Source of the DNA: Candidatus Moraniibacteriota bacterium
GTDB lineage: Bacteria; Patescibacteriota; Minisyncoccia; Moranbacterales; UBA2206
NCBI GenBank assembly: GCA_013334765.1
Contig: JAAXWW010000001.1
Coordinates: 172,589 to 236,588 of the forward strand
DNA: 64,000 bases
Reading direction: 5' to 3'
Below, one piece after another: positions 16,152 through 45,838 of this stretch; the first letter of the stretch is position 1; the number at the start of each line of letters is the position of its first letter. Position numbers and translations under genes: made by a program. The notes under the pieces are model-generated. The model worked only from the letters and a program-made list of their open reading frames with translations, ran no database searches and had not been told where the DNA came from.

Positions 16152-16235
16152 ATGGAAAAATACAATCCTAGCGAAATTGAGCCTAAATGGCCCGCCTTCG
16201 TCCCGCTTAGCGGGACTTCGGTGGGCAAAGCATAA
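16152..16235 (+). CDS. 27-codon upstream ORF duplicating the LeuS N-terminus (leader peptide?)
   Basis: Encodes MEKYNPSEIEPKWPAFVPLSGTSVGKA. The first 13 codons are a diverged copy (31/39 nt) of the leuS start (MEKYEPSKIEPKW). It stops 4 nt before the leuS ATG, in a different frame. Contains a CCCGCTTAGCGGG hairpin. Confidence 0.3.
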   Translation: MEKYNPSEIEPKWPAFVPLSGTSVGKA

Positions 16236-16239
16236 ATAT

Positions 16240-19110
16240 ATGGAAAAATACGAGCCTTCTAAAATCGAGCCGAAATGGCAGAAATGTTGGGAAGAACATC
16301 CGGAGCTTTCGGCTGCCGATGATGCCGTGAATAAGCCGAAATATTATTGTTTGGACATGTTCCCGTATCCTTCTGGCGATGGCTTGCATGTGGGCCATGT
16401 GGAAAGCTATACGGCGACTGATATCGTTTCGCGTTTCAAGCGAATGAACGGAAAAAATGTGCTTCATCCGCAAGGTTGGGACGCGTTCGGCCTGCCTGCT
16501 GAGAACTATGCGATCAAGACCGGAACCCATCCGGATCTGAGGACGCATCAGAATATTGCGAATTTCACAAGACAGATAAAATCCCTTGGCATGTCATATG
16601 ACTGGTCGCGGGAAATCGATACATCAAACCCTGAATATTACAAATGGACGCAATGGCTGTTTCTGCTGTTCTATAAGAACGGATTGGCATACAAGAAAAT
16701 GGGGAAGGTCAATTGGTGCCCTTCCTGCCAAACAGTGCTTGCTAACGAACAGGTTGAAGATGGAATCTGCGAGAGATGCAAGAATGAAGTGATTCAGAAA
16801 GATCTCGAGCAATGGTATTTCAAGATCACGGATTTCATCGAGAACAACAAAGAAACGACAGGCCTCATTGAAGGCTTGGGGAAAGTCGATTGGCCCGGTT
16901 CAACAATAGCGGCGCAAAAGAATTGGATCGGCAAAAGCGAAGGAGTCGAATTCAAATTCAAGGTCAAGAATTCAGATTCCGAAATCAGTGTTTATACTAC
17001 GCGTATAGACACGGTTTTCGGTGTGACATACGTAGTTGTCGGTCCGGAACACAGGATCATCAAAGGGCTCAAAGACAAGATTTCAAACATAGAAGAAGTC
17101 GAGACATATGTGGCAGAAACGAAAAAGAAAACGGATCTTGAAAGAATGGAGGCGAAGGTGAAGACTGGCGTTGAATTGAGAGGAATAAAAGTCATCAACC
17201 CGTTCAGCGGCCAGGAAGTGCCTCTCTTCGTTGCGGATTATGTCTTGAGTCAATATGGAACCGGAGCGGTTATGGCAGTTCCGGCGCATGACGAAAGGGA
17301 TTTCGAGTTTGCGAAGAAATATGATTTGCCGATAAAGAGGGTGATAGAACCTAAATTTATTGCTGGCCCAGGAAGCGATTCTGCGATAATGCCTGGTCAG
17401 GAATATATAAAGCGCAGTGCTATTGCCGCAGTTATTAGAAATCCCAAAGATGACACGTATTTATGTATCAGCTGGAAAACTGCTCATATGCATGGAATAG
17501 TTACTGGCGGTGTTGATGAAGGCGAAGATATCGTCGAAGCTGCGCGGCGTGAAGTGCTTGAAGAGACTGGATACAAAAATTTGAAATTGGTAAAAATTTC
17601 AGACAAAGCAATTCATAGTCTTTTTTATCACCGTGTAAAGAAACAGAATCGCTGGGCACGTTTCCAATATGTAATTTTTGATTTGATTGACGAGCAACAA
17701 GAAGCTATAGATGAAAAAGAAGCGGCTCTGCATGAAATTATTTGGAAGAAAAAAGAAGAGCTTAGGGACTTTTTTAGTGTTATTGAAGGAACTTACATAA
17801 TGAATCTTCTTGATAATATTGATAGTGCTTTTACGGATGATGGTGTTGTGTATAATTCCGGAGAATATGACTGGATGGATTCTTCCGAGGCTCGCAAAAA
17901 GATGGCCCAGTGGCTGGAAAAAGAGGGGATCGGTAAGAAGAAGATAAATTACAAGCTGCGCGATTGGCTGGTTTCGAGGCAAAGATATTGGGGCGCTCCG
18001 ATTCCGATCATATATTGCGACAAGTGCGGAGCGGTTCCGGTTCCGGAGAAGGACTTGCCGGTGATGCTTCCGACAGATGTGGATTTCAAGCCGATTGGAG
18101 AATCTCCATTGGCATATTCGAAAACTTTCCATGATGTGGTTTGCCCGAAATGCGGAGGGAAAGCCAGGAGAGAATCGGACACGATGGATACATTCGTCTG
18201 CTCATCTTGGTATTATTTCAGATATTCCGATCCGAAAAACAGAGAAGAGTTCGCATCAAAAGAGAATATAAAGAAATGGCTGCCGGTTGATCTATACGTC
18301 GGAGGAGCGGAGCATAGCGTGCTCCATCTTCTGTATGCCAGGTTTTTCACGAAAGCATTGCACAATCTCGGATACGTCGGCTTTGATGAGCCGTTCTTGA
18401 AATTGCGCCATCAGGGAATGATTCTGGCGGAAGACGGACGCAAGATGTCGAAGTCGCTCGGGAATGTCATAAATCCGGATGTCGTCGTGAAGGAATTCGG
18501 GGCTGACTCGCTGCGCATATTCGAGATGTTCATGGGTCCATTTGATGCGATGAAACCGTGGAATACGAAAGGAATAGTCGGGATGCAGAGGTTTTTGGAT
18601 AAAGTATGGAGATTTAGCGAAACAGTTTCCGATAGCAATGAGCCGGACGTGAAGATCCAATCATTGCTTCACAAAACAATCAAGAAAGTCACCGCTGACA
18701 TTGAAGATTTCCATTTCAATACTGCTGTATCGCAGCTCATGATCCTGGCTAATGCAATGGAAAAGGAAACGGTAATTTTCAAGGATGAATACGGAAAATT
18801 CCTCATTCTCCTTTCTCCCTTCGCTCCGCATATCGCGGAAGAGCTGTGGTCCAGAATCGGAAATGACAAATCTATTTTCCTGGAGTCCTGGCCGGAATAC
18901 GACGCGGAATTGGCCAAGGATGAAGAGGCTGAAGTCGTGATCCAGGTCAACGGGAAAGTGCGCGATAAGATGACCGTCAGCGCGGATATGGATGAAGAGG
19001 AAATGAAAGCTCTCGCTATCGCAAGTGAAAAAGTACAAGCTCATATATCAGGAAAGGAAATCAGGAAAATCATCGTTGTCAAAGGCAGGCTCGTCAGCAT
19101 AGTGGTCTAG
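16240..19110 (+). CDS. leuS: leucyl-tRNA synthetase carrying an internal Nudix-hydrolase domain insertion
   Basis: 'HVGHVESYTATD' HIGH motif, CP1 editing domain ('TTRIDTVFGVTY', 'GTGAVMAVPAHDERDFEFAKKY'), 'KMSKSLGN' and 'NYKLRDWLVSRQRYWGAPIP'. An extra ~160 aa at ~17350-17840 carries a canonical Nudix box 'GGVDEGEDIVEAARREVLEETGY'. Confidence 0.95.
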   Translation: MEKYEPSKIEPKWQKCWEEHPELSAADDAVNKPKYYCLDMFPYPSGDGLHVGHVESYTATDIVSRFKRMNGKNVLHPQGWDAFGLPAENYAIKTGTHPDLRTHQNIANFTRQIKSLGMSYDWSREIDTSNPEYYKWTQWLFLLFYKNGLAYKKMGKVNWCPSCQTVLANEQVEDGICERCKNEVIQKDLEQWYFKITDFIENNKETTGLIEGLGKVDWPGSTIAAQKNWIGKSEGVEFKFKVKNSDSEISVYTTRIDTVFGVTYVVVGPEHRIIKGLKDKISNIEEVETYVAETKKKTDLERMEAKVKTGVELRGIKVINPFSGQEVPLFVADYVLSQYGTGAVMAVPAHDERDFEFAKKYDLPIKRVIEPKFIAGPGSDSAIMPGQEYIKRSAIAAVIRNPKDDTYLCISWKTAHMHGIVTGGVDEGEDIVEAARREVLEETGYKNLKLVKISDKAIHSLFYHRVKKQNRWARFQYVIFDLIDEQQEAIDEKEAALHEIIWKKKEELRDFFSVIEGTYIMNLLDNIDSAFTDDGVVYNSGEYDWMDSSEARKKMAQWLEKEGIGKKKINYKLRDWLVSRQRYWGAPIPIIYCDKCGAVPVPEKDLPVMLPTDVDFKPIGESPLAYSKTFHDVVCPKCGGKARRESDTMDTFVCSSWYYFRYSDPKNREEFASKENIKKWLPVDLYVGGAEHSVLHLLYARFFTKALHNLGYVGFDEPFLKLRHQGMILAEDGRKMSKSLGNVINPDVVVKEFGADSLRIFEMFMGPFDAMKPWNTKGIVGMQRFLDKVWRFSETVSDSNEPDVKIQSLLHKTIKKVTADIEDFHFNTAVSQLMILANAMEKETVIFKDEYGKFLILLSPFAPHIAEELWSRIGNDKSIFLESWPEYDAELAKDEEAEVVIQVNGKVRDKMTVSADMDEEEMKALAIASEKVQAHISGKEIRKIIVVKGRLVSIVV

Positions 19111-27840: not shown

Positions 27841-29445
27841 TTATATACCTTTGACCATATATGTGTCTTTCAGCCGGTATCCGGATTTACGATAATAACT
27901 GCGGACTCCCACGCCGGAAATGACGGCTATCTTTTTCAATCCGAATTCTTCCCTGGCGATTCGTTCGGCTTCCGCCAGAAGCTTTTTCCCGAGACCGATA
28001 TGCTGAGGGGATGAAGTATCCTTTTTGTTTATGCCGGTCATTTTCCCATAGGTGTGGACTTCCCGGATAAGCGCTGAATTCCTGAGTGCGGTTATCGCAT
28101 GCGTAATATTATTGTCTGATGGAATGCGCAGTCTGAGAAGAGCGAAAAGTTTTTTCTTATCCGGCGATACGTATTGCAGGAATATTTCCTTCCCGTCGGA
28201 TGCATCATAGTTGATGCGGTCCAGCACTATTTCTTCTTTGATGCTGTAGTTCTCACGCACTTCCCGACAGCGGATGCATGGGCATCTGGATTCGTTCGCA
28301 ATCAGTTGACGCAAATTGGAAACGATAGGGCCTGCCACTATTGAAGAGTTCGGCACATCGCGGACCAAGCGGGCAATTCGGACATAGGGCGGAATAAGAT
28401 CATTCTTGATCCTGATTATCAATTTCTCAAAATCATTGTCGGACAGCGGCTCATATCCTTTTCTTTTCCATATATCATGCAGTTCGCTTCCTGCCAGAAC
28501 AACGGTAGGATATATCTTCAGCATGTCCGGCTGGAAACGCTCATCATTGAAAAGCATGCTGAACATTTCGAGATCGCGCTTGGGAGTCGAATCGGGAAGT
28601 CCCGGCATTATGTGGTAGTTTATTTTGAATCCGGCGTCTTTCAAGAGCTTGGTGGCTTGGGCTGTCGCGCTTATGGAATGGCCGCGCCTGGTTTTCGTCA
28701 GGATATCGTCAAAAACGCTTTGGATGCCCAGCTCGACCCGGGTGCAGCCCAAAAGCCTGAAGTTGATGATCTCCTTCTCATCGATATAGTCGGGACGTGT
28801 TTCCAAGGTAAGCCCGATGATGCGATGTTTGGCTCTTTCATTCCGCTTCTCTTCCTTGAAGAGAGCCGCGCTCAAACCAGCGGATCGGGGAATCTTTTTT
28901 CTGGCTATGTTACTCGGATAATCATTGGCAGCTCGGAAGCATTCGGCAATGAATTTCTTCTGATAGGCTTTGGGCAGATATGAGAATGTTCCGCCCATGA
29001 CGATGAGTTCTATCTTATCGGTAGCATGTCCATTGAGTTCCAGGGCTGAGAGGCGGTTCTGAACCTGGCGATAGGGATCGAACTTGGCAGTGATGGCCCG
29101 CATGACTGCCGGCTCATTGGAAAGGTAGCTTTTGGGCATGTTCTTTTCGCTGGGGCAATAGGTGCATTTTCCTGGGCAGGGATGGCTTTTAGTGAGGACG
29201 GCGACAGCGGCTATGCCTGAAGCCGTGCGGATTTTCTTGCTAAAAAGCAGTTTTTCGAATTTTTCGCTCCGGGATATCTTCCTGTCCGATACGAGTTTCT
29301 CATAGGACTGTCTCAAGTCGGCATTGGTCGGAATCGGGAGTCCATGCTTGGCGGACAGCCTTTTCTTGAGCTTCAAAAACTCTTCGCGCGATTCAGGAAG
29401 GCTTTCGATTGCGGAGATTATATAATTGTCGTATTGTTTATTCAT
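27841..29445 (-). CDS. Elp3-like radical SAM + GNAT acetyltransferase (tRNA U34 modification-type)
   Basis: Radical-SAM core 'HPCPGKCTYCPSE', the Elp3-type central region, and a C-terminal GNAT ('GLGKKLLAEAERIAREEFGLKKIAVISGVGVRSYYRKSGY'). Confidence 0.75.
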   Translation of the reverse strand: MNKQYDNYIISAIESLPESREEFLKLKKRLSAKHGLPIPTNADLRQSYEKLVSDRKISRSEKFEKLLFSKKIRTASGIAAVAVLTKSHPCPGKCTYCPSEKNMPKSYLSNEPAVMRAITAKFDPYRQVQNRLSALELNGHATDKIELIVMGGTFSYLPKAYQKKFIAECFRAANDYPSNIARKKIPRSAGLSAALFKEEKRNERAKHRIIGLTLETRPDYIDEKEIINFRLLGCTRVELGIQSVFDDILTKTRRGHSISATAQATKLLKDAGFKINYHIMPGLPDSTPKRDLEMFSMLFNDERFQPDMLKIYPTVVLAGSELHDIWKRKGYEPLSDNDFEKLIIRIKNDLIPPYVRIARLVRDVPNSSIVAGPIVSNLRQLIANESRCPCIRCREVRENYSIKEEIVLDRINYDASDGKEIFLQYVSPDKKKLFALLRLRIPSDNNITHAITALRNSALIREVHTYGKMTGINKKDTSSPQHIGLGKKLLAEAERIAREEFGLKKIAVISGVGVRSYYRKSGYRLKDTYMVKGI

Positions 29446-38096: not shown

Positions 38097-39053
38097 ATGG
38101 AAAAAACAGCCAAATATTCGATCGTTGTCCCTGTTTTCAATGAAGATCAGGTATTGGAAGAATTCCATATGCGGATAACCTCCGTCATGCAATCGGTTCA
38201 TGAAAGCTATGAGCTGATTTTCATAAACGACGGCAGCCAGGACAGGTCTTCGGCAATTATCGAGTCGCTTCACGAAAAAGACGAGACAGTGAAACTCCTG
38301 AGCTTCTCGCGCAATTTCGGTCATCAAGTCGCGATAACTGCCGGAATGGATTGCTCGTCCGGTCAGGCCGTGATCGTTATTGATTCCGATCTTCAAGACC
38401 CGCCGGAAGTCATTCTGGAAATGATAAAGAAATGGAAAGAAGGCCATGATGTGGTTTATGGGAAACGCATCCGAAGGAAAGAGAGGTCATTGTTCAAAAA
38501 AACTACTGCCGCTATATTCTACCGGGTGCTAAGAAGCATAACCGACAGCGATATCCCAGTTGATGTGGGCGATTTCAGATTGATTGATCGCAGGGTGTGC
38601 GATGTCATGAAAGGCTTCACGGAGAAGAACCGTTATGTGCGCGGACTTGTCAGCTGGGTTGGATTCCGGCAGGCAGCTGTCGAATATGAAAGGGACGAGC
38701 GGTTTGCTGGAAAAACCAAATATTCGCTCGGGAAAATGATGAAGTTCGCTATTGATGCCGCTACCTCTTTTTCGCACAAGCCGCTCAAGATGGCATCGTA
38801 TCTGGGCGTATTTTTTTCAGGGGTCAGCTTTGTTTATCTCTTGGTGGTTTTATATGAGAGGGTCTTTACGGAGAAGACGGTCGTCGGCTGGACTTCCATC
38901 GTGGCGGTCAATCTGTTCTTCAATGGCATCGTGCTCATAATCCTCGGAGCCATAGGGGAATATATCGGCCGGATTTATGACGAAAGCAAGAATCGGCCGC
39001 TTTATATAATAGAAAGCAAAAAAGGATTCGGCGATGAATCCATTGGTAGATAA
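38097..39053 (+). CDS. GT2 polyprenyl-phosphate mannose/glucose synthase (Dpm1/Ppm1-like)
   Basis: 'YSIVVPVFNE', 'IFINDGSQD' and 'VIDSDLQDPPE' GT2 DXD motifs, with C-terminal TM helices. Divergent from the GT39 gene. Confidence 0.8.
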   Translation: MEKTAKYSIVVPVFNEDQVLEEFHMRITSVMQSVHESYELIFINDGSQDRSSAIIESLHEKDETVKLLSFSRNFGHQVAITAGMDCSSGQAVIVIDSDLQDPPEVILEMIKKWKEGHDVVYGKRIRRKERSLFKKTTAAIFYRVLRSITDSDIPVDVGDFRLIDRRVCDVMKGFTEKNRYVRGLVSWVGFRQAAVEYERDERFAGKTKYSLGKMMKFAIDAATSFSHKPLKMASYLGVFFSGVSFVYLLVVLYERVFTEKTVVGWTSIVAVNLFFNGIVLIILGAIGEYIGRIYDESKNRPLYIIESKKGFGDESIGR

Positions 39054-39161
39054 TAATTTTCTTGCTGTTTTTTTTGAAGTGTGCAGTCCCTGGCGAAGGC
39101 CTGGGATTTTATGTATGGTCCGACTGTGGATAACCCTGTTTTTTGGCTTGAAAAGGGATCC

Positions 39162-39216
39162 TTGCCATAAAGTTTGGTAGTAGTATAATTGTTTATAGAC
39201 ACACAACATATTGTGT
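39162..39216 (+). promoter_or_regulatory. nrdR promoter (TTGCCA-16-TATAAT) with an NrdR box at the transcription start
   Basis: TTGCCA at 39162-39167 and TATAAT at 39184-39189. A 16-bp near-palindrome ACACAACATATTGTGT at 39201-39216 matches the NrdR-box consensus acaCwAtATaTwGtgt. Confidence 0.5.
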
Positions 39217-39233
39217 AAATATCAAAAAAAGCT

Positions 39234-39683
39234 ATGAATTGTCCATTCTGCAGCAACAGTGAAACCAAGGTTGTTGATTCGCGCGAAACCAACGAAGGCA
39301 AGATCACCAGGAGAAGGCGGGAATGCTCGAAATGCAGCTCAAGGTTCAGCACTTATGAAGAAGTCGAGCTTCTCAATGTCACCGTGGTGAAGCGTGACGG
39401 AACGCGCGCCGACTATGACAAAAGGAAGGTCGAGGCCGGGATTAGGAAAGCGCTCGAGAAGCGTCCCATATCGGAGGAAAAGATATCCAAGCTGGTCGGA
39501 GAAATAGAATATGAGATCCGTTCGCGCGAGAAGTCGGAAATAACATCAAGAGAAATCGGGAAGATAATCCTCAAGAAGCTCCGCCCGTTCGATGAAGTGG
39601 CCTATGTCAGGTTCGCGAGCGTATACAAATCATTCGCGAGCGTGGAAAGCTTCAAGAAAGAATTGGACACGTTCGACAAATAA
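39234..39683 (+). CDS. nrdR: transcriptional repressor NrdR
   Basis: 'MNCPFCSNSETKVVDSR…RRRECSKCSSRFSTYE' zinc ribbon plus an ATP-cone. Confidence 0.9.
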   Translation: MNCPFCSNSETKVVDSRETNEGKITRRRRECSKCSSRFSTYEEVELLNVTVVKRDGTRADYDKRKVEAGIRKALEKRPISEEKISKLVGEIEYEIRSREKSEITSREIGKIILKKLRPFDEVAYVRFASVYKSFASVESFKKELDTFDK

Positions 39684-39739
39684 AAAAGCAAGCAAATTTA
39701 TTTTCATAATTACCATTAATCAATCAGGGGAAAACCGGT

Positions 39740-42025
39740 ATGCAAAACAAAAAGAAAGCAGGGGGAGCGAAGAAAGCCAAAGGTGAAAAATCAAAAGCCA
39801 GAAGCGTTGCTGCGAAGAAGGCTATTGTGAAAAAAACTGTTGCCAAGAAGGCGGTGGCCAAGAAGGCGGCGCCGGCTCGCAAGGAAATCGTGAGCAAGAT
39901 CCAGAAGGTCATAAAAAGAAGCGGGCAGGTGGTTCCTTTCGATAGGAACAAAATAACCAAGGCTGTCCAGAAAGCCTTCCAGTCGACGAAAGAGGGAAAT
40001 TTGAATGATGCCAAGCGGGTGAGTGACAAGGTAGTGCAGATCCTCAATAAGAATCACAAGGAGGGGTATATTCCTGAAATCGAGGAAGTGCAGGATTTGG
40101 TTGAAAGGGTGCTCATGATCCTGGATTTCGAAGAAACAGCCAAAGACTATATCCTCTATCGCGAACAGCACAGGAAGATCCGCGAAACCAACGAATCCAT
40201 TGACGACGCTGTCAATCTGGTTGAAAAATATATCCAGGAAATAGACTGGAAGGTGAAAGAGAATGCCAATATGGCATATTCCCTTCAAGGTCTTAACAAT
40301 TACATATCATCCATTGTCACTTCGAAGTATTGGATGAACCGGGTATATTCAAGACAGATTCGCGAGGCTCATGAAGGTGGCGATTTCCATATCCATGACC
40401 TTCAGCTTCTGGCAGCCTATTGCTGCGGTTGGGATCTTCAGGATCTTCTCCGCCGCGGTTTCACCGGCGTTCCGGGAAAGGTAGCCTGCAAGCCTGCCAA
40501 ACATCTGGGATCGATTCTGGGCCAGATGGTCAACTTCACCTATACGACCCAGGGAGAGGTCGCGGGGGCTCAGGCTTTCTCGAATTTCGATACCTTGCTG
40601 GCTCCGTTCATCCGGTATGACAACCTGACATTCGATGAGGTGAAGCAGGAGATCCAGTCATACGTCTTCAATATGAATGTTTCGACCCGCGTGGGGTTCC
40701 AGACTCCTTTTTCAAACATAACGCTTGATATAACCTGCCCGAAGAATCTCAAGAATGAAGCGGTCATCGTCGGAGGAGTCCCGCAGAAGGAAACTTATGG
40801 CGAATTCCAGGAAGAGATGAACATGATCAACCGGGCTTTCGCGGAAGTGATGACTGAAGGAGATTCGAACGGCCGGATATTCACTTTCCCGATCCCGACA
40901 TATAATATCGGAAAGGATTTCAATTGGAGCGACGAGCGTTTCAACCCGATCTGGGAGATGACTGCCAAATACGGGATTCCGTATTTCGCCAATTTCGTCA
41001 ATTCAGATATGGATCCGGATGATGCCAGGAGCATGTGCTGCCGCTTGAGATTGGATAATCGCGAGCTCCATAAGCGCGGAGGCGGACTTTTCGGAGCTAA
41101 TCCGCTGACCGGTTCGATCGGAGTGGTGACGATAAACCTGCCACGCCTGGGACATGTTTCCAAGAGCAAGGGAGAATTCTTCAAGAAACTCGATGCTTTG
41201 ATGGATCTGGCCAAGGAGAGTTTGGAAGTCAAAAGGGAGTTGGTTGAGAAATTCACCGAGGGAGGGCTTTATCCGTATACCAGGTTCTATCTCAGCGCTA
41301 TCAAGATGCGCCGCGGGCAGTATTGGGCGAACCATTTCTCGACGATCGGTCTTCTGGGAATGAATGAAGCGCTCCTGAACCTTATCGGCAAAGATGTGAC
41401 TACGAAGGCGGGACAGAAGCTGGCAGAAGAAATACTGGTCCATATGCGTGACAGGATCGTGAAATATCAGAAAGAAACCGGCAACCTGTACAATCTTGAA
41501 GCGACTCCGGCGGAAGGCACATCATACCGATTGGCACGCCTTGACCGCGAGAATCATCCGGAAATAATCTTCGCTAACGACAAGGTGGTCAAAGGGCAGG
41601 GTGCCGAGCCGTATTATACCAATTCATCCCAGCTGCCAGTCAATTTCACGGAAGACATTTTCGAAGCATTGGATCTTCAGGACAAACTTCAGACTAAATA
41701 TACCGGAGGAACAGTGCTGCATGGATTCTTGGGAGAGCGCCTTTGGGATATCGAGACGACCAAGAACCTGGTGAGGAAAATCGCTGAGAATTACGCGCTT
41801 CCTTATTTCACGCTCACGCCGACCTTCAGCATCTGTCCGGTGCATGGCTATCTCGAAGGGGAGCATCCGTATTGCCCGAAATGCATAGTCGAACAGAAGG
41901 CGGAAGTGTATTCCAGGGTCGTAGGGTATATCCGTCCAGTCGAGCAATGGAACAAGGGCAAGCAATGCGAATTCGGAGACAGGAAGACATTCGAAGTGAA
42001 AGCCAAAGCCAAAAGCAAAAAATAA
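39740..42025 (+). CDS. nrdD: anaerobic ribonucleoside-triphosphate reductase (class III) with N-terminal Lys/Ala-rich tail and ATP-cone
   Basis: ATP-cone 'VIKRSGQVVPFDRNKITKAV'. NrdD core. C-terminal Zn ribbon 'CPVHG…CPKC' and glycyl-radical motif 'YSRVVGYIRPV'. The first ~50 aa are AKK/KKA repeats. Confidence 0.9.
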   Translation: MQNKKKAGGAKKAKGEKSKARSVAAKKAIVKKTVAKKAVAKKAAPARKEIVSKIQKVIKRSGQVVPFDRNKITKAVQKAFQSTKEGNLNDAKRVSDKVVQILNKNHKEGYIPEIEEVQDLVERVLMILDFEETAKDYILYREQHRKIRETNESIDDAVNLVEKYIQEIDWKVKENANMAYSLQGLNNYISSIVTSKYWMNRVYSRQIREAHEGGDFHIHDLQLLAAYCCGWDLQDLLRRGFTGVPGKVACKPAKHLGSILGQMVNFTYTTQGEVAGAQAFSNFDTLLAPFIRYDNLTFDEVKQEIQSYVFNMNVSTRVGFQTPFSNITLDITCPKNLKNEAVIVGGVPQKETYGEFQEEMNMINRAFAEVMTEGDSNGRIFTFPIPTYNIGKDFNWSDERFNPIWEMTAKYGIPYFANFVNSDMDPDDARSMCCRLRLDNRELHKRGGGLFGANPLTGSIGVVTINLPRLGHVSKSKGEFFKKLDALMDLAKESLEVKRELVEKFTEGGLYPYTRFYLSAIKMRRGQYWANHFSTIGLLGMNEALLNLIGKDVTTKAGQKLAEEILVHMRDRIVKYQKETGNLYNLEATPAEGTSYRLARLDRENHPEIIFANDKVVKGQGAEPYYTNSSQLPVNFTEDIFEALDLQDKLQTKYTGGTVLHGFLGERLWDIETTKNLVRKIAENYALPYFTLTPTFSICPVHGYLEGEHPYCPKCIVEQKAEVYSRVVGYIRPVEQWNKGKQCEFGDRKTFEVKAKAKSKK

Positions 42026-42141
42026 TTTTTTCAGGGATTTTCCTAGGAAGCTAGCGCCTGGCAAAATTCCATAATACTAAAACAAACTAAAAAAAGCCTC
42101 TTTCATGCAAGGAATTGCATAAAAGAGACAGAAGCAAAAAT

Positions 42142-42405
42142 ATGGAACACATTTTTTGCCACGATTGCCAGAAAGAAATGGCACACGATGAGGAAGTCAT
42201 GCGTTATGAAATAGGGGGTCAGGAATATTATAAGTGCAAGAGCTGTCACGAGAAAGACCCGGTACTCAGGAATTTCCAGAAGGCCGAGGTATATTCCAGG
42301 GTCGTCGGATACATCCGCCCAGTCACTCAATGGAACCAGGGCAAGCAGGAGGAATTCAAGGATAGGAGAGAATTCGTGATGGCTGATTCCGCTTGTTGCG
42401 GTTAG
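42142..42405 (+). CDS. stand-alone NrdD C-terminal Zn-ribbon + glycyl-radical domain paralog (GrcA-like 'spare part' candidate)
   Basis: 87 aa: 'CHDC…CKSC' zinc ribbon followed by 'KAEVYSRVVGYIRPVTQWNQGKQEEFKDRREF', compared with the NrdD C-terminus 'KAEVYSRVVGYIRPVEQWNKGKQCEFGDRKTF'. ~80% nucleotide identity over ~100 bp with 41896-41995. Confidence 0.6.
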   Translation: MEHIFCHDCQKEMAHDEEVMRYEIGGQEYYKCKSCHEKDPVLRNFQKAEVYSRVVGYIRPVTQWNQGKQEEFKDRREFVMADSACCG

Positions 42406-42421
42406 TCAAGGAAAAGATGGC

Positions 42422-42460
42422 GGGGCGACCTAATCTTCATTGATCCGGTCGCCCTGATTT
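42422..42460 (+). terminator. hairpin after the NrdD-C paralog (weak terminator)
   Basis: GGGCGACC/GGTCGCCC 8-bp stem with a 16-nt loop, followed by TGATTTTAT. Confidence 0.35.
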
Positions 42461-42586
42461 TATAAAGAAGAATTCGGAATTTTGAATTTGGAATTCAGAA
42501 TGAGAATCAAAAAAATTGAATTATTTATTATCCACATTATTGATTCCAGCAGTATTCAAAATTCAAAATCCTAAATTCAAAATCCT

Positions 42587-43282
42587 ATGCTGATAGCAGG
42601 ACATCAAAAACTCACTCTTATAGACTACCCGGGCCGGATAGCGACCACGGTCTTCACGGCCGGATGCAATTTCCGCTGCCCCTTCTGCCATAATCCGGAG
42701 CTCGTAAGCGGGATCGATATGTCAGTCGGGAGAAAGGCGGAAAAGGAATTTTTCGAGTATTTGAAAAAACGCAAAGGGAAGATCGAGGGAGTATGCATCA
42801 CTGGCGGAGAACCGACAATCCAGAAAGACATCGTCGAATTCATAAGGAAGGTGAACGATGCGGGATATCTGGTGAAATTGGACACGAACGGGCTTCGTCC
42901 GGATGTCATCAAGAAGCTCCTGGATCTGAAACTCATAGACTTCATCGCGATGGATATAAAGAATCAGCTTGATAGGTATGACGAAACGGTTGGCGTGAAA
43001 GTCGACAAAGAAAGGATAAGGCTGAGCGTGGAACTCATAATGCGAAGCGGGATAAATTATGAGTTCCGCACGACGGCTGTTCCAGGCATCCATACGGAAG
43101 AGGATTTCCTGGAAATAGCGAAATGGATCCGCGGCGCCAAAAGCTATTATCTTCAGAATTATCGCGAGGGAAGGATTCTGGATGAGAAACTGAAATTGAA
43201 GACCAAGGGAAAAACGCTCGATTTGGCTCGGATAAAGGATTTGATGAAAGATGCTGTTGATAAGATAGGGATTCGGGGGTAA
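42587..43282 (+). CDS. nrdG: anaerobic ribonucleotide reductase activating protein (radical SAM)
   Basis: 'TAGCNFRCPFCHNPEL' radical-SAM motif plus an NrdG-type C-terminus. Adjacent to nrdD. Confidence 0.85.
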   Translation: MLIAGHQKLTLIDYPGRIATTVFTAGCNFRCPFCHNPELVSGIDMSVGRKAEKEFFEYLKKRKGKIEGVCITGGEPTIQKDIVEFIRKVNDAGYLVKLDTNGLRPDVIKKLLDLKLIDFIAMDIKNQLDRYDETVGVKVDKERIRLSVELIMRSGINYEFRTTAVPGIHTEEDFLEIAKWIRGAKSYYLQNYREGRILDEKLKLKTKGKTLDLARIKDLMKDAVDKIGIRG

Positions 43283-43345
43283 AATGGTGTGAAGGTTTCG
43301 GGTAAGCTCAGGAGCTTCCGCAATAATAAATCAAAATCTTCATTT

Positions 43346-43666
43346 ATGAAAAAATACATCGGCAAGTCATTGATTTTCGCAATAAACATATTCCTCGCGG
43401 CTATCGGGATCATGGTCATTAAGGATCATGACGAGACCGGGTCATCTGAAAAGACGGATACGCTGGTTGATCAGACCGGAATGAGCCCTGAGATCTCAGG
43501 TTCCCAGAGCGCTATCTCCGCTGATCGCGAAAACACGCTGAGGAATCTCAATAACACTCCGAGCCAGCTCAGCTCCCAGGCGGTGACTACGAAAACGACG
43601 ACCGCCAAGACGACCACCACTCCTGCGTCATCCGGCTCTTCTTCTAAAAAAACCAAGACTTCATAA
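43346..43666 (+). CDS. hypothetical secreted/anchored Ser-Thr-rich protein
   Basis: Signal-anchor 'MKKYIGKSLIFAINIFLAAIGIMVI' and a C-terminal T/S-rich tail ('TTKTTTAKTTTTPASSGSSS'), which is probably low complexity. Confidence 0.35.
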   Translation: MKKYIGKSLIFAINIFLAAIGIMVIKDHDETGSSEKTDTLVDQTGMSPEISGSQSAISADRENTLRNLNNTPSQLSSQAVTTKTTTAKTTTTPASSGSSSKKTKTS

Positions 43667-43670
43667 AGAC

Positions 43671-44006
43671 ATGAAACAACATAGAAACAATTATCGCTTC
43701 GCAGCCGCGCTCTTGATACCGCTGTTGCTGCTGATGTTTTCTTTTGCTCATGCCGAAGATGACGAGGAAGATGACGACGACGATCATGAATCATCCGTTT
43801 CGCGTTCGACATCATCAACTTCCACTTCTGGAAAAGACAAGATAAAAGTAGAGACCAAGGTTGATACGACCACCCAGATTATCAAGATAATGGACAGCGA
43901 CGGAGATCGGATTCCCGATGGCAGTGATCCTCATCCCAATATTTCAGAGATATACATAGTGTCGGATGATAACGGAAACGGCATAGTGGATAAGTTCGAG
44001 AAATAA
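43671..44006 (+). CDS. hypothetical secreted acidic protein with TSP3-like Ca-binding repeat
   Basis: Signal peptide, an 'EDDEEDDDDDHE' acidic run, and 'DSDGDRIPDGSDPHPN'. Confidence 0.4.
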   Translation: MKQHRNNYRFAAALLIPLLLLMFSFAHAEDDEEDDDDDHESSVSRSTSSTSTSGKDKIKVETKVDTTTQIIKIMDSDGDRIPDGSDPHPNISEIYIVSDDNGNGIVDKFEK

Positions 44007-44017
44007 GGAAAAGGGAT

Positions 44018-44956
44018 ATGGATAATATTTCCGAAAAAAGATTCAAGGCGATCGGAACGGATATCCATCTTGAAATCGTTTCTCATGATGAACAGGAAGC
44101 CTCGCGAGCCATGGATGATATCAATGAGGCCCAAATCATTTATGCTGATCAAGAGAAAATATTCAGCCGGTTCGATTCCGAAAGCGAACTCGGCTTTTTT
44201 AATGTCAACTTGGGCGTATGGCATGAAGCCTCGCCTGATTTTATCGAGGTATCAAAGAAAGTCATCGCATACTATGATTTGAGCGGCGGAGTTTTTGATC
44301 CGAGAATCATCGACGTTCTGGAGGGAACAGGCTATAAGGAAAGTTTCGAGAAGAAATATTTCAAGCGTGACGATGAAAAGATATACGATGCGACATTCGA
44401 AAATAATCTCAGGGATGATTTGGCGATAGACGGAAACAGGATCATGTTCAAGGCGAGGATGGATTTTTCCGGCATAGTCAAGGGATATATAACTGACAAA
44501 ATAAGCGCTTTTTTAAAGAAGAAAGGCTGGAAGGATTTCATAGCTGATTCGGGAGGGGATATTTTTGCGGCTGGCCGCAATGAAGAAGGAAAAAAATGGA
44601 TAATAGGCTTCGAGGATCTGCCTGAAGAAAAGATGGGGATTTTCCTTGAAGGCGAAGCGGTGGCGACATCCGGTACTGGAAGGCGGAAATGGGAACTTGG
44701 CGGAAAGCATTTCCATCACCTGGTCAATCCCAAAAATCCTGAAAGCTTTTCCTTTGATCTGCGCTCGGTGAGCGTTGTCGCCAAGAGCGTTGAGGAGGCT
44801 GATTTTTGGGCCAAATATTTGTTCATACTGGGCAAGGAAGACGGAATGGAAAAAGCCAGGGAAAAGGAAATCAAGGCAGTGTTCCTGGATAGGCGCGGAA
44901 ACGCTTTCGTCACCAAAATGATCAGGGACAATGTTTTCCAGGAAAAAGGTGTATAA
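44018..44956 (+). CDS. apbE: FAD:protein FMN transferase
   Basis: ApbE-family length and conserved blocks ('…FSRFDSESELGFFN…', 'DSGGDIFAAG', 'VATSGTGRR'). Confidence 0.75.
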   Translation: MDNISEKRFKAIGTDIHLEIVSHDEQEASRAMDDINEAQIIYADQEKIFSRFDSESELGFFNVNLGVWHEASPDFIEVSKKVIAYYDLSGGVFDPRIIDVLEGTGYKESFEKKYFKRDDEKIYDATFENNLRDDLAIDGNRIMFKARMDFSGIVKGYITDKISAFLKKKGWKDFIADSGGDIFAAGRNEEGKKWIIGFEDLPEEKMGIFLEGEAVATSGTGRRKWELGGKHFHHLVNPKNPESFSFDLRSVSVVAKSVEEADFWAKYLFILGKEDGMEKAREKEIKAVFLDRRGNAFVTKMIRDNVFQEKGV

Positions 44957-45838
44957 TTGAGACAGCCTATGAAAAAGACATTGTATTCATTATCAATCAT
45001 TATCTGCCTGCTCTTCGCTTCAAGGGTCGCTTTTGCTGAAACAAAAATAGATTATAACGGTCAGCCGGTTTTGGACAGCGATCTGGACGGATTGACAGAT
45101 GAAGGGGAAAAGCAGATATACCGAACTGATTCGAACAATCCTGATACTGACGGCGATGGGATTCTGGATGGAGCTGAAGCGATCGGCGGCGGCGATCCGA
45201 TGGATGCCAGCAGCCCGCGCGCGAAAGAAGTCGTGACCAATAACACATATAAGATTGAGAAGGACCCTTCCTGGCCGTGGTACATTATCCGTTCCTTCGG
45301 CATGGTTTCATTCCTGCTTCTCTATGTTTCGATATTCCTTGGGATTGCGATCCGGTTTCCAGGGTTGCGGCGACTGATCAATCCGGCATATTCATTGGAT
45401 ATTCACAGGTTGATCTCGGTGCAAGCCCTGTTTTTTGCTCTTTTTCATGGCTTGGCGGGGATGTGGGACAAATATATAAACCTGACCCTTAAAGACGTTT
45501 TCATTCCGTTCGCTTCTAGCTATGAGCCTGGCATGATGGCGCTTGGCACGATCGCGATGTATCTCATGGTCGCTCTCATTGTCAGTTCATATCTCAAAAG
45601 CCGCATCCCGTACGGAGCATGGAGAGCCATTCATTCGCTGAATTTTTTCCTGTATGCCTTCTCGTTCGTTCACGCTATCCATCTGGGAACGGATCTGCAA
45701 TCCGGTGTGTTGAGAACGGTATTCATCTATGCCAATGCTTTGCTGATGGCCTTGCTTATTATGAGCATTTCGCTAAGGGCCTTTAATTCTTACAAAAGCA
45801 GGAGAGCTGAAAACTATGAGGATATACGTCAGGACTAA
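44957..45838 (+). CDS. ferric-reductase-like transmembrane (di-heme) domain protein with N-terminal TSP3-like repeats
   Basis: Signal peptide, 'DSDLDGLTDEGE…DTDGDGILDG' repeats, then a 6-TM region with paired His residues ('HRLISVQALFFALFHG', 'AIHSLNFFLYAFSFVHAIH'). Confidence 0.5.
   Translation: MRQPMKKTLYSLSIIICLLFASRVAFAETKIDYNGQPVLDSDLDGLTDEGEKQIYRTDSNNPDTDGDGILDGAEAIGGGDPMDASSPRAKEVVTNNTYKIEKDPSWPWYIIRSFGMVSFLLLYVSIFLGIAIRFPGLRRLINPAYSLDIHRLISVQALFFALFHGLAGMWDKYINLTLKDVFIPFASSYEPGMMALGTIAMYLMVALIVSSYLKSRIPYGAWRAIHSLNFFLYAFSFVHAIHLGTDLQSGVLRTVFIYANALLMALLIMSISLRAFNSYKSRRAENYEDIRQD

Follow-up and report, generated by a model that had tools for sequence, protein, structure and literature searches.

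Glycyl radical enzymes are all destroyed by oxygen in the same way, that is by a break in the polypeptide backbone at the radical glycine. Oxygen cuts these enzymes at this very residue and, in the case of pyruvate formate-lyase (PFL), the lost piece can be replaced by the small protein YfiD (PMC13450708), also named GrcA in E. coli (IPR011140); a phage-encoded PFL spare part, Y06I, is attributed to T4 (Wagner et al., 2001, as cited in PMC13450708 and PMC8683613). According to a review of June 2026, spare parts are known for formate lyases only (PMC13450708), and a 2021 study of YfiD stated much the same gap (PMC8683613). Regarding NrdD, the catalytic subunit of class III ribonucleotide reductase (RNR), no spare part was found in the literature searched, which agrees with what a first-pass annotation of the DNA considered here, made from its letters, had supposed. 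This DNA is a stretch of 64,000 nucleotides (nt), hereafter the window, from contig JAAXWW010000001.1 of a Candidatus Moraniibacteriota bacterium, in which an open reading frame (ORF) of 87 amino acids (aa) lies between nrdD and nrdG. As judged from its sequence, this small ORF is a free-standing and complete NrdD C-terminal glycyl-radical domain, with zinc ribbon, glycine loop and tail.

The 87-codon ORF (MEHIFCHDCQKEMAHDEEVMRYEIGGQEYYKCKSCHEKDPVLRNFQKAEVYSRVVGYIRPVTQWNQGKQEEFKDRREFVMADSACCG) encodes a protein beginning with MEHIFCHDC from an ATG at 42142; a TTG at 42115 is possible upstream but the homologues all begin 3-6 residues before CHDC. Along the polypeptide, a predicted four-ligand zinc site formed by Cys6, Cys9, Cys32 and Cys35 (CxxC…CxxC) precedes a loop of motif EVYSRVVGYIRPV, where the radical glycine would be Gly56 (codon 42307-42309), and a tail bearing Cys85-Cys86 (42394-42399). 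This is the layout of the NrdD C-terminal radical domain, in which zinc site, buried glycine hairpin and tail follow in the same order (T4 Gly580, T. maritima Gly621, P. copri residues 676-739). Unlike the latter, the small protein is not tethered to a barrel, its ribbon is of the CxxC-x22-CxxC instead of the CxxH-x10-CxxC type, and it carries an additional C-terminal Cys pair. An AlphaFold2 model (predicted local distance difference test, pLDDT, 80) places after the ribbon a β-hairpin (49-52/57-60), whose tip carries Gly56, followed by a helix, a predicted shape that is the one expected for a glycyl-radical finger; the best match of a profile search against the PDB was the Gly621 loop of T. 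maritima NrdD (E=0.12), the query being too short for significance. With the neighbouring NrdD, BLASTP aligned 33 residues (NrdD 719-751), 27 of them identical (E 3e-16), and the shared residues read QKAEVYSRVVGYIRPV.QWN.GKQ.EF.DR..F. The first-pass description of an ORF with its own start, a CxxC…CxxC ribbon and a glycine loop close to that of NrdD thus holds, as does the nucleotide identity of about 80% to the 3' end of nrdD: in-frame 99-nt segments (42277-42375 in the small ORF, 41894-41992 in nrdD) are identical at 76 positions (77%), and slightly longer stretches give a mean column identity of 83% in a gapped MAFFT alignment. Among the 23 nucleotide differences, 13 fall at third codon positions and 8 at an A in the NrdD copy, an absence of A bias that rules out a diversity-generating retroelement target, as the annotation had argued.

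In the Pfam NRDD profile, the match is confined to the last ~50 positions (E 8e-13). With the NCBIfam NrdD models (TIGR02487 / NF006126), the small protein reaches 41.7 bits against a cut-off of 326, over profile positions 540-580 only, and stays below every NrdD equivalog cut-off; it fails as a class III RNR catalytic subunit. Because the score is so far below the NrdD cut-off and only positions 540-580 are matched, the database name 'anaerobic ribonucleoside-triphosphate reductase' attached to the small homologues is, by sequence, a misnomer. Membership of the GrcA/YfiD family is ruled out as well, since no match to Pfam Gly_radical (PF01228) or NCBIfam GrcA was obtained at E<=0.1, only NRDD/NrdD models and zinc-ribbon noise. 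The fingerprint RVxG[FWY] of a GrcA-type small free-standing radical domain is nonetheless present in these 87 aa as SRVVGY, with Gly56 invariant in 58 members. Like GrcA/YfiD, the small protein is a stand-alone glycyl-radical domain of a large glycyl radical enzyme with the RVxGY fingerprint, presumably activated by the activase of its parent and replacing a loop lost to oxygen. Unlike GrcA/YfiD, it derives from NrdD and not from PFL, has a zinc ribbon of four Cys where GrcA/YfiD has a disordered N-terminus, sits inside an nrdD-nrdG operon and constitutes, in many relatives, the only radical domain. For PFL and GrcA, we know of no reported case of the spare part being the only radical domain.

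The distribution of the two radical loops among related loci bears most directly on function. The window NrdD retains its own ribbon and Gly729, hence the small ORF is not the displaced end of a broken gene. In a first survey of related loci, seven neighbouring NrdDs ended soon after the CxxH…CPxC ribbon, with the RVVGY loop in no frame; these loci had been fished by the Gly-loop pattern and so could not reveal genomes devoid of both copies. In a second survey, metagenome contigs were scanned with the NrdD core only (residues 160-700) and, among the 80 closest loci, 72 could be scored for a loop kept in NrdD and for a ribbon-plus-Gly-loop ORF within 900 nt downstream, absence of the small gene meaning that it is not directly downstream in loci covering ±2.5-5 kb. 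Intact NrdD accompanied by the small gene was found at 26 of the 72 loci (19 after dereplication at 97% core identity), loop-less NrdD with the small gene at 25 (17 after dereplication), intact NrdD alone at 21 (18) and neither copy at 0 (0), with Fisher p=2e-5 for all loci and p=3e-4 after dereplication. On a neighbour-joining tree of the NrdD cores, the most parsimonious history has the loop changing state at least 7 times and the small gene at least 12 times. Loss of one or the other copy of the radical loop occurs, never of both in this 72-locus sample. A homologue search with full NrdD, in which all 120 best matches kept the Gly loop, is uninformative on the frequency of loop loss because score ranking favours full-length matches.

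With ratios of non-synonymous to synonymous substitution rates (dN/dS) of 0.027-0.035, the loop-less NrdDs are working genes and not pseudogenes. Their tails are decayed loop remnants (e.g. …EQKTEVYSRKIKNK and …CPKCVIEQKTEVYSRKIKNK, both directly followed by the stop, …EQKTEVFLKVGEE… and …EQKTEMYFKVGEEG…); ribbon and strand before the glycine are retained, and the proteins stop near the site at which oxygen cleaves glycyl radical enzymes. Since class III RNR needs a glycyl radical and no sampled locus lacks both copies, the simplest reading is that the small protein would supply the radical in trans to an NrdD core resembling the oxygen-cleaved enzyme. In the first-pass annotation, a truncated nrdD was to reduce the small ORF to a displaced C-terminus; in the window nrdD is intact and, in the relatives, the loop has changed state at least seven times with the small gene present at all 25 loop-less loci, which turns the objection into support for the GrcA-like NrdD spare part that the annotation proposed, its part in oxygen repair being suggested by analogy. 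In several loop-less lineages (L179, L212, L243, L014, L020, L192 and related loci), the small protein has the long Lys-rich C-terminal tail that normally ends NrdD, and some loop-less NrdDs end in …SCCK, …DCCK or …VCC; tail features seem to have been swapped between the two proteins in these lineages.

By its conservation, the small gene qualifies as a real gene under strong purifying selection. The orthologue search, which covered 5.8 billion proteins, returned 344 homologues, the best 120 clusters of which are all 80-113 aa long and 58-93% identical over their full length; the named organisms among these 120 are Candidatus Moranbacteria, Patescibacteria and unclassified uncultured bacteria. 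In a 58-member alignment, C6, H7, C9, K31, C32, C35, G56 and most of the loop are invariant. Between the window and its closest relative L087 (93% aa identity), dN/dS of the small gene is 0.026 (29.3 synonymous and 7.7 non-synonymous differences), equal to that of nrdD (0.026), with 0.054 for nrdG; the second close pair (L013/L016) gives 0.028. The codon-level check advocated in the first pass yielded selection as strong as on nrdD and, in the search for small ORFs beside nrdD or nrdG in other genomes, the order nrdR-nrdD-small-nrdG is present in every examined Moranbacteria locus with the small gene (including L001, L003, L005 and L087). In most Moranbacteria, the small gene begins only 16-40 nt after nrdD and is therefore probably co-transcribed with it; the relatives' spacers are AT-rich, and a promoter scan gave no convincing separate promoter for the small ORF. 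A terminal CC, CxC or CxxC occurs in 103 of 120 Moranbacteria-type members (86%) vs. 12 of 143 in other subfamilies.

Besides, the two loops of a genome resemble each other more than expected. When the 36-residue Gly segment was compared in 14 genomes with both copies, some of them close relatives, the mean aa identity of the small protein was 0.825 to the NrdD of its own genome vs. 0.737 to other NrdDs, a value reached by 0 of 10,000 permutations. Nucleotide identity between the Gly segments of the small gene and nrdD is 99% in L005, 90% in L001, 85% in L015 and 73% over 108 nt in the window, and synonymous sites are saturated between the compared genomes. This pattern indicates, at the sequence level, episodic gene conversion, or co-evolution with shared partners, keeping both loops fit for the same barrel and activase.

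Taken together, the small protein can with good confidence be regarded as a trans-acting radical domain. That it is an autonomous, NrdG-activated glycyl-radical domain backing up or replacing that of NrdD is the explanation considered probable from the sequences, and repair of oxygen-damaged NrdD as its role in the window genome is slightly favoured; this last role draws on the analogy with GrcA and on distant homologues in oxidative-stress operons. In P. copri NrdD, the glycyl-radical domain (zinc site, buried Gly loop and tail) is disordered as a unit in inactive states (PMC11226230), and the NrdD zinc domain is implicated in the binding of NrdG, the glycine having to leave the barrel for activation (PMC4493059). 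In the mechanism envisaged, NrdG, encoded downstream, would abstract the hydrogen of Gly56; the activated domain would then dock on an NrdD core lacking its own radical loop or having it displaced; finally, the hairpin of the small protein would enter the barrel, where the Gly56 radical would generate a thiyl radical on the SMCCRL finger loop. In the window genome, the small protein would act as a replacement once oxygen has cleaved the NrdD loop, as GrcA/YfiD does for PFL; replacement is proposed there because the window NrdD keeps its loop and purifying selection acts strongly on either copy.

The family extends well beyond the Moranbacteria. With a profile search over 1.84 billion cluster representatives, 642 clusters were recovered at E<1e-10, and every one of the top 150 has a length of 42-159 aa. 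In other Patescibacteria, small forms are ~90-105 aa and, in Paceibacterota and Minisyncoccales, the small gene lies again between nrdD and nrdG (L030, L033 and L057). Desulfobacterales, Syntrophales and Thermodesulfobacteriota have ~105-136-aa forms with an N-terminal helix (…L..LF(D/E)E…CHDC…GGA.Y…KC..C…); this subfamily comprises 457 clusters, mostly annotated 'hypothetical protein', without a cultured host among them, all originating from metagenomes or metagenome-assembled genomes. Candidate ribbon-less mini-proteins of 50-62 aa were also encountered on contigs too short to judge. Small homologues located apart from nrd genes are distant (44-55% identical). Among 18 GTDB loci without nrdD or nrdG within 5 kb of the small homologue, 8 adjoin oxidative-stress genes or regulators of the Fur (PerR-like) or Rrf2 family, namely Fur-family regulator – small – rubrerythrin – desulfoferrodoxin (L041), small – rubrerythrin – desulfoferrodoxin (L023), Fur-family regulator – small – 85-aa ORF – Fe/Mn superoxide dismutase (L040), Rrf2 regulator – small – rubrerythrin – flavin reductase/rubredoxin (L042), small – hemerythrin (L027), rubrerythrin – small (L032) and Fur-family regulator – small (L026 and L029).

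Stand-alone homologues are also found in viruses. At least 35 IMG/VR contigs encode one with NrdD core and NrdG absent within 4 kb, some with a gene for a phage tail lysozyme or Mu-F head protein as neighbour, and a further small homologue adjoins Gp77-family, HNH and integrase genes. The published genome of the archaeal virus ANMV-1 (KP703175.1) encodes a 144-aa ribbon-plus-Gly-loop protein without catalytic barrel (AJP62049.1; L252 2749-3183), annotated 'anaerobic ribonucleoside triphosphate reductase', nrdD. Cultured or deposited phages gave three matches only, i.e. this stand-alone protein, the full-length NrdD of PhiF1 and the unannotated record MT835493.1. Like T4 Y06I, the homologues of phage contigs and ANMV-1 stand alone, far from nrdD/nrdG, and have the appearance of a radical domain that a virus brings to an enzyme of its host; unlike the PFL-type Y06I, they are NrdD-type, with a putative role in phages.

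It is reasonably likely, though a little less so than the backup or replacement role itself, that class III RNR possesses a separately encoded, exchangeable radical subunit in three versions. In part of the Patescibacteria, it would be a spare part beside an intact NrdD, as in the window, or else a second subunit on which a naturally split enzyme depends; related forms would be wired into operons of Fur-family regulator, rubrerythrin, superoxide reductase (SOR) and superoxide dismutase (SOD); and phage-carried forms would keep or take over the host supply of deoxyribonucleoside triphosphates (dNTPs). As an analogy only, the loop-less lineages recall class I RNR (NrdA with the radical-generating NrdB), where catalytic barrel and stable radical also reside on separate polypeptides; unlike in class I RNR, with its distant metallo-cofactor and long-range radical transfer, the glycyl radical would insert directly into the barrel.

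Several observations weigh against a domain that backs up or replaces the NrdD loop. The small gene is missing beside NrdD in 21 of the 72 relatives and appears dispensable when NrdD is intact, and its probable co-expression with nrdD is at odds with the induction by stress that a pure repair factor would be expected to show. The oxidative-stress neighbourhoods are those of distant subfamilies, outside the orthologue group of the window. Loop-less NrdDs keep their own ribbon, so that the complex would carry two ribbons, which the model leaves unexplained, and the ±2.5-5 kb covered leave room for another, intact nrdD in other parts of the loop-less genomes. When the small-protein model was searched by fold on its own, only generic zinc ribbons came back. 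Finally, the conserved C-terminal Cys pair has no place in the model; it may be a second metal site or shuttle redox equivalents as the tails of class I/II RNRs do.

Among the other explanations, the one that survives best sees the small protein as an alternative, co-equal radical subunit without specific link to oxygen damage: an ancestral duplication would have created redundancy from which lineages drifted to a radical domain in cis, in trans or both and, in the window, the small protein would be used interchangeably with the built-in domain, e.g. raising radical occupancy. Reciprocal losses are what redundancy predicts, the small gene is probably co-transcribed with nrdD and not separately induced, and gene conversion keeps the two loops alike. 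Neutral redundancy leaves unexplained, however, the strong purifying selection on both copies in the 26 double loci as well as the occurrence of other subfamilies inside the Fur-family regulator/rubrerythrin/SOR/SOD operons, and this explanation is held to be rather unlikely. A regulator or decoy, competing for NrdG or filling the NrdD barrel without catalysis and thereby tuning or shutting down dNTP synthesis, would suit a protein encoded between nrdD and nrdG and carrying the elements recognised by NrdG, i.e. zinc domain and Gly loop (PMC4493059); it is very improbable, as it cannot account for 25 loci where an NrdD without radical glycine is nevertheless under purifying selection, nor for the invariance of the radical glycine and its flanks, unneeded in a mere competitor. 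More doubtful still is a redox role, in which the C-terminal Cys pair would shuttle reducing equivalents to an NrdD2-type active site like the tails of class I/II RNRs, the Gly loop serving as docking handle. The frequency of the Cys endings in Moranbacteria-type members, the presence in the window NrdD of a third Cys and a Glu, as is typical of redoxin-dependent NrdD2, and the …CCK ends of some loop-less NrdDs speak in its favour; against it, the pair is missing in 14% of Moranbacteria-type members and 92% of those of other subfamilies, the radical glycine is invariant, and no such tail is needed by intact NrdDs that lack the small gene. The last possibility, a partial duplication in decay, as the first-pass annotation had allowed, or else an artefact of nrdD being split or frameshifted, has in its favour the 77% identity of the 99-nt segments and is refuted by the full-length nrdD, at least 120 orthologue clusters, the low dN/dS, an ORF intact in every examined locus and a ribbon and tail that are distinct and conserved.

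With an autonomous radical domain that backs up or replaces that of NrdD as the preferred explanation, what appears new, from sequence comparison, is the extension of the spare-part principle to class III RNR, together with a naturally two-subunit class III RNR in many lineages; with the small protein, a spare radical part outside PFL has its first strong candidate. If true, this would be the first spare-part system for a glycyl radical enzyme other than the formate lyases, and the natural pairs of truncated NrdD and small protein make the repair question testable for the dNTP-supplying enzyme of strict anaerobes. It also suggests a way in which bacteria of very small genome might come through transient oxygen, the loci covering too little of the genomes to tell if these possess RNRs other than NrdD, and points to a new class of phage auxiliary gene. 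A new name would be required for hundreds of small proteins that now go under 'anaerobic ribonucleoside-triphosphate reductase' or 'hypothetical protein'.

Regarding the locus itself (Table 1), nrdR is the first gene of the conserved nrdR-nrdD-small-nrdG block. The window NrdD scores 1073 bits on NCBIfam NF006126 (cut-off 548) and carries its finger-loop motif SMCCRL at residues 431-436. Alignment to the T. maritima (4COI) and P. copri (8P23) structures reveals Glu587 and an adjacent Cys pair as in the T. maritima SCCR motif, by which the protein appears NrdD2-like as defined in PMC4493059; Glu587 is equated with the T. maritima active-site Glu by alignment, the residue number not being confirmable in that source. 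In its own glycyl-radical domain, the ribbon CPVHGYLEGEHPYCPKC covers residues 699-715 (41834-41884) and the radical glycine, Gly729, is encoded at 41924-41926. Both NrdD and the small protein presumably receive their glycyl radical from the nrdG product. The first-pass statement that NrdG is encoded right after the small ORF is correct as to its downstream position and not as to immediate adjacency, a 181-nt spacer with a conserved hairpin separating the two.

Table 1. Positions of the genes, domains and predicted nucleic-acid elements of the nrd locus in the window.
Feature	Position	Strand	Details
nrdR, repressor of nrd genes	39234..39683	+	zinc ribbon + ATP-cone; Pfam Zn_ribbon_NrdR E 8e-19, ATP-cone E 2e-20
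nrdD, full-length class III ribonucleotide reductase	39740..42025	+	761 aa, ATP-cone; Pfam NRDD 1-562/562, E 2e-193
NrdD own glycyl-radical domain	41834..41992	+	CxxH…CxxC ribbon, Gly729, segment paralogous to small ORF
Imperfect 15-bp palindrome/hairpin GCCTCTTTCATGCAA-GGAA-TTGCATAAAAGAGAC	42096..42129		ends 13 nt before small ORF start codon
Small ORF, autonomous NrdD-type glycyl-radical domain (candidate)	42142..42405	+	87 aa; Pfam NRDD positions 510-562 only
Terminator-like stem-loop AAGATGG-CGGGGCGACC…GGTCGCCCT-GATTTTA	42414..42463	+	directly 3' of small ORF
nrdG, radical-SAM activase	42587..43282	+	NCBIfam TIGR02495 NrdG2, 218.6 bits vs. cut-off 131

Two hairpins flank the small ORF, neither of which matched a credible family in an Rfam scan of 39000-43500. 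The upstream palindrome, whose inner CATGCAAGGAATTGCAT is common only to the window and its closest relative L087, could be an operator or an RNA element. In the downstream stem-loop, which occurs once in the window, the base GGGGCrA…TyGCCC and the 5' AAAAGATAG tract are kept in 14 Moranbacteria loci with saturated synonymous sites, and compensatory changes affect 8 of 14 pairs; placed between the small ORF and nrdG, the stem-loop may function as terminator or attenuator. The AT-rich spacer that follows (42470-42586) contains several AATTCAAAAT-like repeats, and similar repeat-rich spacers exist in L008, L014 and L017.

Downstream of nrdG, the block 43289-45838 comprises two small ORFs without Pfam match, an ApbE flavin transferase (44018-44956) and a membrane protein of the Ferric_reduct type that carries TSP3 repeats (44957-45838). 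L003 and L087 share this synteny, and the block may represent an extracytoplasmic redox module maintained beside the nrd genes. Elsewhere in the window, a 534-aa protein encoded on the reverse strand (27841-29445) has radical SAM and Radical_SAM_C domains, and a 977-aa leucyl-tRNA synthetase (16177-19110, forward strand) displays an unusual architecture, with an inserted NUDIX domain (residues 413-529, E 8.5e-14) that separates the editing domain (248-393) from the second catalytic-core half (593-782).

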